Position numbers and translations under genes: made by a program. Shown in pieces: positions 7,360-11,226 of a stretch of DNA of 25,843 nucleotides (the first letter of the stretch is position 1; each line of letters opens with the position of its first letter). The notes beneath the pieces are model-generated. The model was not told the DNA's origin and did no database searches. It worked only from the letters and a program-made list of their open reading frames with translations. Location: IMG/VR virus record IMGVR_UViG_3300020397_000579, positions 1 to 25,843 of that record; one strand, written 5' to 3'. The DNA comes from a virus. Lineage: Duplodnaviria > Caudoviricetes.

Positions 7360-8598
7360 TTAATTGCCCTCTTCTGCAAAAACATAATCTTTTCTGATAA
7401 CGCCCAAGGTTTCATCGCCTCTTGCATGGGATGAAATGAAAACTCTTGTTTTACCTACATTCGGGCCGCTACGAATTGGCCTTTTATAGTTCCTATAAAA
7501 ACCTCTGACCATGTGCCGCCTTTGCTTAACGCCTGTCTTTCCGTTTTCAGATTCGCTTTTTAGCGTCACGTTGGGTTTTATTTCCAGCAAATGATATTCA
7601 TAATGGGGATGTTTCTTCTGCTTCTTGGGAGAACGTGCCTCAACCTGTGCTGGTTTTTTGAAACCATGTTTGCTCTGGGTTGCTTGGCCCTCTTTTTTGA
7701 AATAGAGCATCTGGAAAAACTTATAAATTTTGACATGAAAATTTTGCAACATTCCAGAATTTCCCATTTCTTCCCCTGCCTTCAATATGTCCTCGCAAAT
7801 AGGAACGAACTGTTTTCCAATGGGGATGAATTGAATATCCATAGAACGAAAGGTTCCCTCTTGTTCCTTTGGAATATACCCAAAAAAAGGCAAAAACCTG
7901 AAGGCCGAATATCCGGTTTTTGGATTTTCAATGAAAATTGCTATTTCTATTTGAGTGCTTAACAGAAGCAGATCCATCGGATTTCCCTGTTTTGCGAAAG
8001 GAGATAAAAGCTCATCTTTTTCATTTTTGTCAATCCAATTATTTCGGAAGAAAAATAAAGTGTGGGCGATTAAAATCTCCCCTTTATGCGGAACACCCGA
8101 TTCATGATATTTGTCATCAAAAGGTTGGGCAAAATCTAAAAATACATTATCAAATGGAAGTGACATTGGTATTTCTTGATTCAATCCCAAAAGCTCCCTC
8201 CACTCCCAATCTTTCTCATCATCAACAGCACTCAATAATACTTCGTCTGTGAAAGATTTTTTATCTTGCGTATTACCCTCATGGTCTAGCAATATCTTGT
8301 TATAGTCGGGCTGGTGCATTTGAAACTTAAAACTCTTTCTCAACGATTCGGCACTTCCACCTATTAAATTACGCATCAAACGAATTAGCTCGTTGTTTAA
8401 AGTCTCCCCAGTTTCACCGATCCTCTGCAAATCTTCCTCATAGTCAGCATGGCCATGAAAAGGAAAAACATCTGACAGGCTTGCACTTGTTTGAATTTTG
8501 TTAGCTAGTGCCGTCCTAGAATTTAGCTTTTCCAGATTTTCCGCTACATCAAGCCATTGGTTATAGCCCTGACTGAATTTTTTAAAATGATCTTTCAT
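7360..8598 (-). CDS. Hypothetical 412-aa phage protein with basic C-terminal domain
   Basis: Long ORF, RBS AAGGGG; C-terminus RRHMVRGFYR...FISSHARGD..LG.I.KDY resembles a recurrent phage motif of unknown function. Confidence 0.8.
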   Translation of the reverse strand: MKDHFKKFSQGYNQWLDVAENLEKLNSRTALANKIQTSASLSDVFPFHGHADYEEDLQRIGETGETLNNELIRLMRNLIGGSAESLRKSFKFQMHQPDYNKILLDHEGNTQDKKSFTDEVLLSAVDDEKDWEWRELLGLNQEIPMSLPFDNVFLDFAQPFDDKYHESGVPHKGEILIAHTLFFFRNNWIDKNEKDELLSPFAKQGNPMDLLLLSTQIEIAIFIENPKTGYSAFRFLPFFGYIPKEQEGTFRSMDIQFIPIGKQFVPICEDILKAGEEMGNSGMLQNFHVKIYKFFQMLYFKKEGQATQSKHGFKKPAQVEARSPKKQKKHPHYEYHLLEIKPNVTLKSESENGKTGVKQRRHMVRGFYRNYKRPIRSGPNVGKTRVFISSHARGDETLGVIRKDYVFAEEGN

Positions 8599-8614
8599 TT
8601 TGGTTTTCCCCTTG

Positions 8615-8640
8615 AAAAAAAGGGGGGATCGCTCCCCCCT
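8615..8640 (-). terminator. Rho-independent terminator
   Basis: - strand AGGGGGGA-GCGA-TCCCCCCT followed by a T run, 5 nt after stop 8646. Confidence 0.85.
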
Positions 8641-8645
8641 GATAA

Positions 8646-9014
8646 TTAACCCGCAAGCCTTTCAAGTGCATCGGCTTTACCGTATGAGATTTTTTTTAAA
8701 TAGCAATAATAATCAAAATCTCCATTGGCTCCTTCGGCTTCCATGTCCATCTGGAGAGCTTGCCGAAAGTCTTTAGCTCCAATTTCAACCAGTTTGGCAA
8801 AACACTTTTTAAGGAGAATCCAATTTTTTACCCGCCGAATACAGGACTGTCTGTACTGTTCTTCATATTGGTCGCAAAGCGCACTATGAACTTTTTTAAG
8901 TTCGTCTAAAGGAAGATCATCGTATAGCCCGCGTGGACGAGACCCCCAAACGTCTTTGTGAAGATCGCTGATAAAGGTGAGTAACTCTGCTTTTTGTTCC
9001 ATTTCGTTTTCCAT
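8646..9014 (-). CDS. Hypothetical early protein
   Basis: Start reassigned to ATG 9014 (CAGGAAAAACAAAATG); ISDLHKDVWGSRPR motif; the longer track start at 9083 lies inside the ribozyme. Confidence 0.8.
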   Translation of the reverse strand: MENEMEQKAELLTFISDLHKDVWGSRPRGLYDDLPLDELKKVHSALCDQYEEQYRQSCIRRVKNWILLKKCFAKLVEIGAKDFRQALQMDMEAEGANGDFDYYCYLKKISYGKADALERLAG

Positions 9015-9030
9015 TTTGTTTTTCCTGTGT

Positions 9031-9091
9031 TGGTTTCCTAAGACCCTTGGGGTTTCGGCGGGGTAACCAGCCCCGCATCTCATCAGTTAGG
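9031..9091 (-). ncRNA. Type I hammerhead ribozyme
   Basis: CCUAA CUGAUGA G(AU)GCGGGG CUGGUUA CCCCGCC GAAA CCC CAA GGG UC^UUAGG AAACCA: full catalytic core, stems I-III, and loop II UGGUU complementary to 3' AACCA. Confidence 0.9.
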
Positions 9092-9103
9092 TCTATTTAT
9101 GGT

Positions 9104-9328
9104 TTATTTTCCATAAAGATTGATCCTTTCTCTTTCCAACCAATCTGAAATTGTCATGTTTTGTTCTTTTTCACTCATTGAGGCTAAATAAGCATCATGT
9201 TTGGGAGCTTGCTCAACCACACTGAATTTTCCAGTTTTTGAAAAAGAGATGATGTACTTTTTGCCATCTTTCAAAGATCGCAATCGTTTTAATTCTTTGT
9301 TTGCTTCGTGAATATTTTTAAAAGTCAT
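9104..9328 (-). CDS. Hypothetical early protein
   Basis: 74 aa, RBS CAGGGAAACAAAATG, directly after a promoter. Confidence 0.75.
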   Translation of the reverse strand: MTFKNIHEANKELKRLRSLKDGKKYIISFSKTGKFSVVEQAPKHDAYLASMSEKEQNMTISDWLERERINLYGK

Positions 9329-9361
9329 TTTGTTTCCCTGTTTCGTTAATGTATGAGAAGG

Positions 9362-9403
9362 ATTATCGGTGAAATAATATTATTAGTCAACCCCTTTTGG
9401 GTT
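9362..9403 (-). promoter_or_regulatory. Sigma70-type promoter with operator
   Basis: TTGACT(9390)-17-GATAAT(9367); perfect AACCC-CTTTT-GGGTT at 9389-9403 overlapping the -35. Confidence 0.75.
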
Positions 9404-9421
9404 AAATAATTAAAAAAAGTT

Positions 9422-9448
9422 AAAAAAAAGCCCTCTTTTTGAGGGCTT
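9422..9448 (-). terminator. Rho-independent terminator
   Basis: - strand AAGCCCTC-AAAAA-GAGGGCTT plus T run, downstream of the DUF932 gene. Confidence 0.85.
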
Positions 9449-9465
9449 AATTAGGGGGAAGGAAG

Positions 9466-10413
9466 TCAAGCCGCCCTTCTCAGCGGCTTAAAGAACTTCC
9501 TGATGTTATCTTCTCGCGTTTTTTTGATTGAGACAATGTTTTCGGAGTAAGACTCTCCGGCTGGTGCATGAGTGGCCCAATGAGTACAAGCGTTGTATAA
9601 GGCCCATTCATTTTGCCCCAGTTCCCTTCGGTTAGCGTTCCACTGATTCCACAAGTGAACTAATGCTGGCTTGTCCAAAAATCTCTTGGTAGTCAAAGTT
9701 TCAGTCAAAGGCTCATCGGTGGGAAGGTCTTTCAAGTTATACCCAGCAACCGTCCAAAGTTGTCTGAACGCTTCTTTGTCTGTGATGCTGTTTTCTCGCC
9801 ATTGTTTCCATCGCTCACCCTGAACGGTGAACTGCTTGATGCAATCGGAGATTTGCCAAGTTGCCTGTTCGTGATCTAACGACTTTGTGTGCCTCTTCTT
9901 GAAATGTGAAATCCAATCTATAGACACTTGACCATTCAAGCAAAGTTCTCTCAGTCCCCCCACAAAAGCGTTGAACGCCCAACTGCCATCCATGCTGTCG
10001 TAAATTCCAATCTGAGCTTGGGTACGGTCACCGTTGCCCATGTCAATGACGAGGGAAGGAATGGTATAAACAGCTTTCATACGCGCACCATCGTGAGAAA
10101 AACTGATGTCTCGCTTGAGACCATCCAAGTCAATTTCGGAGTAAAGCAAGGCTTGTTCAATAGCATTTACGCCAACGTCATATTGAGCCAGTTCAAAGTT
10201 TTTGAAATCCTGCTTGACTACGTTCACCACGTTTCCAGATTTCTCGTTGAAAATCACGGTGCGGTCTGAGGACTCCAGCCCTTTTATTATGCCGTTGTCT
10301 TTCTTCTGAAATTGCAATGGCGAAATCCCAAAGGTTGGAAGATTCGTTGGGCCAAGTTTGTTGATGGCTGATTGATTGTTGAAGTAAGGGTTGTTAAGAA
10401 TTTTTACTGACAT
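9466..10413 (-). CDS. DUF932 family protein
   Basis: SMDGSWAF.....G.R..CLNG...KRHTK...EWALYNA.T.WATH motifs. Confidence 0.85.
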   Translation of the reverse strand: MSVKILNNPYFNNQSAINKLGPTNLPTFGISPLQFQKKDNGIIKGLESSDRTVIFNEKSGNVVNVVKQDFKNFELAQYDVGVNAIEQALLYSEIDLDGLKRDISFSHDGARMKAVYTIPSLVIDMGNGDRTQAQIGIYDSMDGSWAFNAFVGGLRELCLNGQVSIDWISHFKKRHTKSLDHEQATWQISDCIKQFTVQGERWKQWRENSITDKEAFRQLWTVAGYNLKDLPTDEPLTETLTTKRFLDKPALVHLWNQWNANRRELGQNEWALYNACTHWATHAPAGESYSENIVSIKKTREDNIRKFFKPLRRAA

Positions 10414-10495: not shown

Positions 10496-11023
10496 TTATT
10501 TTTTAAATGTCTGCCCTACCTGACCATCGCCATCTTCTGATTCAATGTTTTTTTCCACGATTGCTCTTGATTGAAACCCAAACCCCAATCGCAACTCCGG
10601 CGGGAAGCACCAGAGATGGTACTGATTCGCGGTGTTGACTAAATTGCTTTCTTTAGGATAGACCTCCACCGCATCCACTTCTTGTCCCACCAGTTCGTTT
10701 TTGATCGCTTGGAAATCTGCCCAAGACTTACATGGCCGCTTGTCTTTCCTCTTGATACTTAAGTGAGTTATCTTGTTTTTAAATTCGCCTTCTGCGAGAT
10801 CCGTTTGCCGATCTACAAAAACCATGTAGATTGAATTGGCATAAACTTCCAACGTCTCGTTGCGTTTTTCTTCTCTGAAAAAACTTTCTTTGATTTGCTC
10901 CAGCGTGAAGTTAACGTTGGTCTTTGAGTCGTTGAAGAATTTAATTGCTTGCGCTTCAACCGCTTCTTTTTTTCGGGGAGCAAGGGAAACTCGTTTGAGC
11001 TTCCCCCCTTTTAGTTGACTCAT
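10496..11023 (-). CDS. Conserved phage protein (DUF7694-like)
   Basis: HLSIKR.D......WADFQAIKNELVG....AVEVYP.ES.LVNTANQYHLW; ATG 11023 gives ATGA overlap with upstream stop. Confidence 0.75.
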   Translation of the reverse strand: MSQLKGGKLKRVSLAPRKKEAVEAQAIKFFNDSKTNVNFTLEQIKESFFREEKRNETLEVYANSIYMVFVDRQTDLAEGEFKNKITHLSIKRKDKRPCKSWADFQAIKNELVGQEVDAVEVYPKESNLVNTANQYHLWCFPPELRLGFGFQSRAIVEKNIESEDGDGQVGQTFKK

Positions 11024-11226
11024 AGTTGAAACTCCTTCCAGTCTACTCCTTTGCCAGTCAGAGAGAGTTTCAGCGGAGATCCGCAAGCGGCTTTGCGTCC
11101 CTTAGCCCACTTCCTGCCGATTGACGTTAGGTAACCCATGCGCCATCCATTGTCCCAGTAGGTGACGCAAGTGTGACCACGCCGTTTGATCTGTTTACTC
11201 GTTAAAATGTGTTTGCTTCTTTTCAT
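11020..11226 (-). CDS. Small basic hypothetical protein
   Basis: ATG 11226 after AAGGAAAACAAA; first gene after a promoter. Confidence 0.7.
   Translation of the reverse strand: MKRSKHILTSKQIKRRGHTCVTYWDNGWRMGYLTSIGRKWAKGRKAACGSPLKLSLTGKGVDWKEFQL

Follow-up and report, generated by a model that had tools for sequence, protein, structure and literature searches.

The window, i.e., the whole stretch of DNA analyzed here, is an IMG/VR record of 25,843 bases from an uncultured marine phage and is estimated to be 52% complete. It encodes siphovirus-type tail genes, a lysozyme, a primase/helicase, and a PD-(D/E)XK nuclease. The nearest matches of the primase/helicase among cultured phages (Tenacibaculum, Synechococcus, and Flavobacterium phages) are ~30% identical or less, and no match was returned by blastn when positions 8600-9480 were compared with cultured phage records. 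In this region, two small protein genes lie on the minus strand with a hammerhead ribozyme motif between them. The features are as follows, in the 5′ to 3′ order of that strand.

9428..9448, minus strand: terminator-like hairpin (8 pairs, 5 of them GC) followed by TTTTTT, which ends the transcript of a DUF932 gene
9362..9390, minus strand: sigma-70-like promoter, TTGACT-17 nt-GATAAT (10/12, a consensus match only)
9104..9328, minus strand: gene for a 74-aa protein, the upstream cistron (no family match)
9096..9117, minus strand: 7-bp hairpin UUUAUGG/CCAUAAA around the stop codon of the 74-aa gene (predicted by folding, z-score −3.27; kept in the loci L002-L006)
9031..9091, minus strand: type I hammerhead ribozyme motif, including a 3′ tail pairing with loop II (from the core, the helices, covariation, and model alignment)
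9015..9041, minus strand: leader of 27 nt that the 3′ cleavage product is predicted to have; AGGA lies at 9026-9023
8646..9014, minus strand: gene for a 122-aa all-helical protein, the downstream cistron (phrog_21968, E-value 1.5e-9)
8621..8640, minus strand: terminator-like hairpin AGGGGGG-AGCG-AUCCCCCCU with a T run (consensus match)

Both genes are bracketed by the promoter-like and terminator-like sites, and thus a single transcript would carry the 74-aa and 122-aa genes with the ribozyme mid-way. On the minus strand from 9362 to 8640, no further promoter-like site was found. The predicted two-gene transcript with the ribozyme would therefore run from the promoter-like site (9390) as far as the terminator-like hairpin (8640-8621). 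The original prediction, which was made from the letters of the window, had put a promoter at 9390 and a terminator near 8615-8640, and consensus matches were indeed recognized there, at 9390-9362 and 8640-8621. Among the RNA runs searched, one metatranscriptome contained 4% of the sampled words, and two 151-nt contigs from it correspond to 8988-9023 and 9389-9480. Both contigs fall outside the ribozyme, and three other runs did not include the region; these data are silent on expression or cleavage. The genes for the DUF932 protein (9466-10413) and a DUF7694 protein (10496-11086), also on the minus strand, adjoin the ribozyme operon upstream.

Structure of the Predicted Hammerhead Ribozyme

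The motif begins 12 nt past the stop codon of the 74-aa gene, and its predicted cleavage site is 27 nt ahead of the start codon of the 122-aa gene. Its parts, all on the minus strand, can be read as follows.

9091-9087 with 9041-9037, minus strand: stem I, CCUAA/UUAGG, 5 bp (read from the sequence)
9080..9086, minus strand: core C3-A9, CUGAUGA (identical in all 34 family rows having letters there)
9057..9079, minus strand: stem II, comprising G10.1 at 9079, an AU bulge at 9078-9077, GCGGGG at 9076-9071, CCCCGC at 9063-9058, and C11.1 at 9057
9070-9064, minus strand: loop II, CUGGUUA, capping stem II
9042..9056, minus strand: G12, A13, and A14, stem III, and C17 (GAAA at 9056-9053, C17 at 9042)
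9053-9050 with 9046-9043, minus strand: stem III, ACCC/GGGU with the loop CAA (4 bp counting A15.1-U16.1)
9042/9041, minus strand: predicted scissile bond, 3′ of C17
9036, minus strand: linker A between the stem I 3′ strand and the pseudoknot tail
9031..9035, minus strand: pseudoknot tail AACCA, complementary to UGGUU of loop II (9069-9065), 5 bp

Stems I, II, and III are 5, 7, and 4 bp long. The three pairs flanking the core are all standard: U9041-A9087 (1.1-2.1), G9079-C9057 (10.1-11.1), and A9053-U9043 (15.1-16.1). Both the sequence and the alignment to RF00163 indicate the type I topology, in which stem I is open and loops cap stems II and III. Nucleotide 17 is C (9042), i.e., not G, and C is found at this position in 34 of 35 family rows, the remaining one having A. 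A pseudoknot is predicted between UGGUU (9069-9065) in loop II and AACCA (9035-9031) in the 3′ tail.

Two characters count against the hammerhead reading. The closing position of loop II is a C-A mismatch in the window, while three relatives have G-C there, and the 2-nt bulge of stem II adjoins the 10.1-11.1 pair.

The original prediction described a type I hammerhead with a pseudoknot, and the stems, the core, the GUC, and the loop-tail pairing that it listed match the minus strand at 9091..9031 exactly. The topology, all core positions, and the cleavage-site nucleotides are present, and the pseudoknot covaries among relatives. The coordinates given for the cleavage site (9042/9041) and for the 27 nt to ATG 9014 also agree.

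Chance Expectation and Rfam Models

The bare core pattern is common, with 22 overlapping matches at 7 places in the window (shuffle mean 6.25). A structural scanner was used which requires the core, the 10.1-11.1 pair, and at least 4 bp in each of stems I, II, and III (stem III counting A15.1-U16.1). A single site in the window passed, its three stems measuring 5, 7, and 4 bp and its pseudoknot 5 bp, and no three-helix hammerhead was found on either strand of 1000 dinucleotide-preserving shuffles. The motif is well beyond chance.

The original prediction had proposed Rfam hammerhead models as a check. At the gathering scores, Rfam returned no match in the window, and none of 20 family loci had a hammerhead match in this mode. 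In E-value mode over 231 bases, Hammerhead_1 (RF00163) scored 13.0 bits against a gathering score of 34, and RAGATH-1-hammerhead (RF03152) scored 17.8 bits against 56.3; both models align in the predicted register. The check thus failed at the gathering scores, while the register of the prediction was reproduced. Only two weak and unrelated sRNA matches were obtained for the whole window in E-value mode. The scores below the cut-off are attributable to the long and bulged stem II, and the gathering score of RF00163 is a cut-off set by curators, not a biological criterion.

Minimum free energy (MFE) folding of the 101-nt stretch 9125-9025 gave a z-score of only −1.53, and in the predicted fold a GACCU/GGGUC helix replaces stems I and III. 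With this z-score and this alternative helix, thermodynamic folding alone would have missed the ribozyme.

A Phage-Borne Family with Covarying Helices

Relatives were collected with the pattern CTGATGAGA..CGAAACCC..GGGTC. Its fixed parts, CUGAUGAGA, CGAAACCC, and GGGUC, represent the core and three stem III pairs, while stem I, stem II, and the pseudoknot are left free. The pattern was found at 46 loci of viral contigs, and the reversed control pattern at none. In prokaryote genomes (one per species, ~185,000 species), only two matches were obtained. The covariance model described below matches L056, from a Clostridia MAG, in full (67.6 bits). L055 is a partial match of 19.7 bits without stem I, and it was read as chance. 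L054, the sole addition from a pattern with the AU bulge and a free stem III, was also read as chance; it is high in G+C, its stems are not visible, and it is unmatched by the model.

The 46 loci and the window represent 30 distinct sequences. Stem I is 4-5 bp long in all 30, with 13 different 5′ strands. For stem II, 16 different 5′ strands were counted, and each is complementary to its partner strand. A bulge of A or AU in stem II is common to 16 of the 30.

A covariance model, designated R1, was built from the family sequences with L053 left out, and was run over 36 sources. It recovers its training sequences, including the window at 58.1 bits, as is expected by construction. Beyond the training set, it matches L053 (46.5 bits) and second copies in L051 (54.0), L022 (42.8), L046 (37.3), and L044 (22.4, clipped by the contig end). 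There was no second copy in the window, and no match in L002-L006. Whole-record searches of five related contigs revealed 1, 1, 2, 4, and 1 copies per contig. In the R1 alignment, all 34 rows have standard pairs at the four inner positions of stem I, each position showing 2-5 pair types, and 25 of the 34 have a standard pair at the outermost position. The core does not vary; all 35 rows have GAAA and A15.1-U16.1, and 34 of these have U16.1-C17. Stem II is misaligned in this alignment, because the bulge and loop lengths differ, and therefore stem II was analyzed with a parse of each sequence.

The closest subfamily consists of the window, L053, L012, and L013 (alignment A6). In this small sample of four sequences, 98.9% of 88 cells form standard pairs, and the sole exception is the C-A at the loop closing of the window. 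Five double-sided changes were recognized: one in stem I (C-G to U-A), three in stem II, and one in the pseudoknot (G-C to A-U). The change in the pseudoknot is compensatory, with UGGUU/AACCA in the window and UGAUU/AAUCA in L013. When columns were shuffled, the share of paired cells was matched in 0 of 500 shuffles and the count of double changes in 1 of 500. When the structure was slid by 1-3 columns, 35-55% of the cells were paired.

Across the 30 distinct sequences, the loop II and the 3′ tail of the same member form on average 3.53 contiguous Watson-Crick pairs, with at least 4 bp in 14/30 and at least 3 bp in 28/30. The controls gave lower values: 2.69 bp on average for loops combined with the tails of other members (804 pairs; 14.7% with at least 4 bp), and 2.44 bp for shuffled tails (12.5%). 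The pseudoknot is only 2 bp in L018 and L045.

These comparisons place the window element in a phage-borne family of putative ribozymes in which the helices and the pseudoknot covary. Loss of the core and of stem covariation in related phages had been named as an outcome that would speak against the hammerhead; both are kept across the family.

The Downstream Gene and Its Leader

The 122-aa protein has no Pfam family, and its sole PHROG, phrog_21968, is of unknown function. Seven homologue clusters were found (69-98% identity). Six of them are 122 aa long and start with MENE or MQNE, while one is recorded as 145 aa. Only viral hypothetical proteins were found in the Atlas. The structure model is all-helical (pLDDT 76.9), and Foldseek against PDB returned no match at an E-value of 0.001 or less. 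When the protein or its alignment was used as the query, no relatives were found in the viral contigs. A metagenome scan with the 122-aa protein revealed at least one locus, with L053 among the matches listed.

AGGA is located 8 nt ahead of ATG 9014. The first 60 nt of the predicted product (9041-8982) have an MFE of −0.5 kcal/mol and are predicted to be unstructured. The leader is conserved up to the start-codon position in L012, L013, and L053.

The reading frame of the 122-aa gene can be extended to ATG 9083, which is the AUG within the core CUGAUGA. It is extremely unlikely that 9083-9015 is protein-coding and specifies the N-terminal 23 residues of a 145-aa protein. The frame 8646..9083 is open, one of the seven homologue clusters has this length, and L053 also has an open extension, giving 143 aa. 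However, the extension in L053 starts from a different ATG and its first part is in a different frame owing to a 1-nt indel, the substitutions compensate base pairs and are not codon-like, and AGGA precedes ATG 9014 at 8 nt. As six of the seven clusters are 122 aa with the MENE/MQNE start, the 145-aa ORF is an over-extension. The false N-terminal extension suspected in the original prediction is borne out by these cluster lengths and by the indel of L053 inside the extension.

Conservation Boundaries at the Ribozyme

The 74-aa gene has relatives on five viral contigs (L002-L006, 89-93% identity), all without the ribozyme. At the DNA level, homology to the window is confined to the stretch from 9349 (or 9338) down to 9096 (or 9099), and it ends 5 nt before stem I. 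After ...AUGGAAAAUAAACCAU, another gene follows in these contigs, with its start overlapping the stop codon, and the same hairpin as in the window encloses the overlapping stop and start. The hairpin at 9117-9096 is a part of the upstream module. For this reason, and because a z-score below −2 was obtained in only 7 of 34 family members, its inclusion in the ribozyme was considered and rejected. Just 5′ of stem I, the window (9096-9117, z-score −3.27) and L053 (66-95, z-score −3.43) each have a strong hairpin whose loop is 8 nt long, and the two sequences are unrelated.

L053, from a metagenome, has the ribozyme, the leader, and the gene in common with the window, and its 122-aa protein is 88% identical. 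In its ribozyme, a G-C pair of stem II is changed to C-G, and a UUCG loop is placed on a shortened stem III. The DNA 5′ of stem I is unrelated to that of the window, and homology begins at the 5′ edge of stem I. Past the terminator, the window has a 412-aa ORF (7360-8598, minus strand) with no Pfam or PHROG match. This ORF is absent from L053 (532-760), where the 122-aa gene is followed by homologues of the window ORFs at 7357-6521; the difference is a whole-gene insertion or deletion at a module boundary.

In the closest subfamily, conservation begins with the 5′ strand of stem I and stops after the start-codon position. L013 has a different gene behind the leader. At the start-codon position, the window and L013 have ATG, while L012 (516-600, minus strand) and L020 have ATC. 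A crude scan found no ORF of at least 40 aa starting within 120 nt; the downstream gene may have been lost, or may have a later or an unusual start.

For the whole family, 118 locus pairs with ribozymes at least 85% identical were compared in their 150-nt flanks. Both flanks are kept in 56 pairs, neither in 49, only the downstream flank in 5, and only the upstream flank in 8; the pairs share ancestry and these counts are not independent. Among 75 pairs of 39 non-redundant loci, which share ancestry likewise, 41 lose upstream identity within 12 nt of the core. On the downstream side, 31 of these pairs lose identity within 20 nt of the cleavage site, and 12 do so at 21-40 nt. By a crude ORF call, the upstream stop codon is −9 to +12 nt from stem I in 39 of 47 loci, and the downstream start is 19-49 nt past the cleavage site in 36 of 47. 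The downstream ORFs fall into 23 unrelated clusters. Among 22 representatives, 17 have no PHROG match at 1e-5, and the other five match an anti-restriction protein, an ATPase, a transcription regulator, and two families of unknown function. Sequence conservation thus has sharp boundaries around the predicted ribozyme, which is often a conserved island between unrelated flanks.

Proposed Function and Alternative Explanations

It is likely that the locus contains a complete type I hammerhead with a loop II/3′-tail pseudoknot, whose predicted self-cleavage after C9042 would cut the two-gene transcript. Cleavage would take place 3′ of C17 by internal transesterification, as established for the hammerhead class. 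The upstream RNA would then have a 2′,3′-cyclic phosphate end behind the hairpins of stems II and III, the former being G+C-rich. The 5-bp stem I and the 5-bp pseudoknot would separate after cleavage. The downstream mRNA would have a 5′-OH and a short, unstructured, A-rich leader of 27 nt with a ribosome-binding site. Decay and translation of the two cistrons could be uncoupled in this way, and the downstream gene would obtain an identical 5′ end in any upstream context, like a natural counterpart of engineered ribozyme insulators. A GACCU/GGGUC helix at the 3′ end of the upstream product after cleavage was also considered, and it was dropped because GACC is absent in L012 and L013.

A context-independent 5′ end would fit the constant ribozyme and leader beside changing genes. 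It is possible, though it must be considered doubtful, that the ribozyme and its pseudoknot tail, joined in the closest subfamily by the leader with the ribosome-binding site as far as the start codon, act in marine phages as a portable junction cassette. Such a cassette would supply whichever gene follows it with a standard mRNA 5′ end independent of context and, being the sole conserved DNA between otherwise unrelated flanks, would also be the site of gene-module exchange.

Three other explanations were weighed. One is a role at the DNA level, in which the conserved island of ~65-90 bp is a homology patch for mosaic module swaps and RNA cleavage is secondary or incidental. The boundaries agree with it: the homology between the window and L002-L006 ends at 9096, 5 nt before stem I, that with L053 starts at the 5′ edge of stem I, and neither flank is kept in the 49 of 118 pairs (with only the downstream flank in 5 and only the upstream flank in 8; non-independent). 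The breakpoints of the 75 pairs agree as well, 41 of them within 12 nt of the core upstream and 43 within 40 nt of the cleavage site downstream. Yet breakpoints at the edges are also expected if selection keeps the ribozyme while neutral flanks swap, a pure recombination linker needs no invariant catalytic core, and the compensatory changes in all helices and in the pseudoknot indicate selection on the RNA fold, not merely on DNA identity. A DNA-level role is therefore considered improbable. A conditional ribozyme is similarly improbable; here, ribosomes reaching the end of the upstream gene, or an alternative fold, would control cleavage, and the amount of processed downstream mRNA would follow upstream translation. 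The stop codon, 12 nt before stem I in the window and at −9 to +12 nt in the 39 of 47 loci (crude ORF call), is so close that a terminating ribosome would cover stem I, and the MFE fold of 9125-9025 uses the alternative GACCU/GGGUC helix. However, genes are expected to be tightly packed behind stop codons wherever a phage genome is compact, L012 and L013 do not conserve the alternative helix, the upstream hairpin has a z-score below −2 in only 7 of 34 members, and no ligand-binding or switch element is evident.

The least probable of the three, with a very small chance of being correct, is that the motif is an inactive relic or a look-alike that arose by chance and does not cleave. The scores below the Rfam gathering cut-offs, the C-A mismatch closing loop II, and the AU bulge of stem II could be taken in this sense, as could the contig pieces from the RNA runs, which fall outside the ribozyme. 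The bulge, however, is shared as A or AU by 16 of the 30 distinct members. None of the 1000 shuffles yields such a motif, 46 viral loci were found against none for the reversed control, the helices covary, and in L053 the ribozyme is kept upstream of the same gene. Self-cleavage of a type I hammerhead accounts for these observations and is preferred here.

Comparison with Known Hammerhead Ribozymes

Elements of this kind have been described before: Perreault et al. (2011; PMC3088659) reported hammerheads with pseudoknots next to phage genes, and the window element is an ordinary but very clear phage hammerhead. According to that paper, thousands of hammerheads exist, and pseudoknots occur in all three types and are predicted in ~40% of representatives. 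The pseudoknot keeps stems I and II parallel, which results in fast cleavage at low Mg2+, and activity is lost upon its disruption. Hammerheads flank genes in phages and prophages, and a halovirus hammerhead lies 13 nt before a start codon, with a mapped 5′ end within 3 nt of the cleavage site. As stated in a 2019 review (PMC6765202), the purpose of such bacterial and phage ribozymes is still to be defined. A literature search on phage hammerhead function found nothing later than these two papers.

Type I pseudoknotted hammerheads (PMC3088659; RF00163) share with the window element the catalytic core, the three-helix junction with an open stem I, base pairing between loop and tail as a tertiary contact, and a position between varying phage genes. 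Multiple copies on one strand are a further likeness, seen in related contigs (four in G004, two in G003). Differences are that the window (13.0 against 34 bits) and 20 of 20 family loci are below the gathering score of RF00163, that stem II of the window is long (7 bp) with an A/AU bulge by 10.1-11.1, and that the window has a single copy in its contig. HHphage of the haloviruses HF1 and HF2 (PMC3088659) likewise precedes a start codon by a few nt (13 nt, against 27 nt in the window) and likewise occupies a phage region with replication-type or early genes. Unlike the window element with its canonical core, HHphage has core insertions, and it belongs to an archaeal virus of high-salt habitats. 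The RAGATH-1 hammerhead model (RF03152) aligns end to end, and its upstream hairpin falls on 9117-9096. However, the score is 17.8 against 56.3 bits, the window hairpin comes from an upstream module that occurs without the ribozyme, and for such a hairpin the z-score falls below −2 in no more than 7 of the 34 family members.

Engineered ribozyme insulators such as RiboJ place a self-cleaving hammerhead before the ribosome-binding site, by which the mRNA obtains a constant 5′ end. They are synthetic constructs derived from a plant satellite RNA ribozyme. A hammerhead ahead of the ribosome-binding site is common to these constructs and the window, where the natural element may have an insulating effect.

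The role of self-cleaving ribozymes in phages and bacteria is treated as an open question in PMC6765202, and the locus is an unusually clean test bed for it. It combines one promoter-like site, two small genes, one ribozyme, and one terminator-like hairpin, and natural comparison cases are available: the upstream gene without the ribozyme in L002-L006, and the ribozyme and downstream gene behind other DNA in L053. A portable junction role at mosaic boundaries may be a new aspect. If the ribozyme indeed acts as a junction cassette, it would help to build the mosaicism of phage genomes. For annotation, a well-populated subfamily of phage hammerheads is missed at the Rfam gathering scores, and gene callers render the ribozyme as a false N-terminal extension.

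Two other arrangements were observed among the relatives. In G004, the 40-kb viral contig of L051, hammerhead-model matches lie on the minus strand at 35378-35453, 38742-38810, 39184-39252, and 39772-39836; four copies within 4.5 kb correspond to the clustered arrangement described for prophages. Twister-P5 exceeds the Rfam gathering score in L022 (908-963, 57.2 bits), L030 (904-961, 40.8 bits), and L018 (287-344, 39.7 bits). It is ~300 nt from the hammerhead in these three loci, and thus one small gene would be framed by two ribozyme classes.
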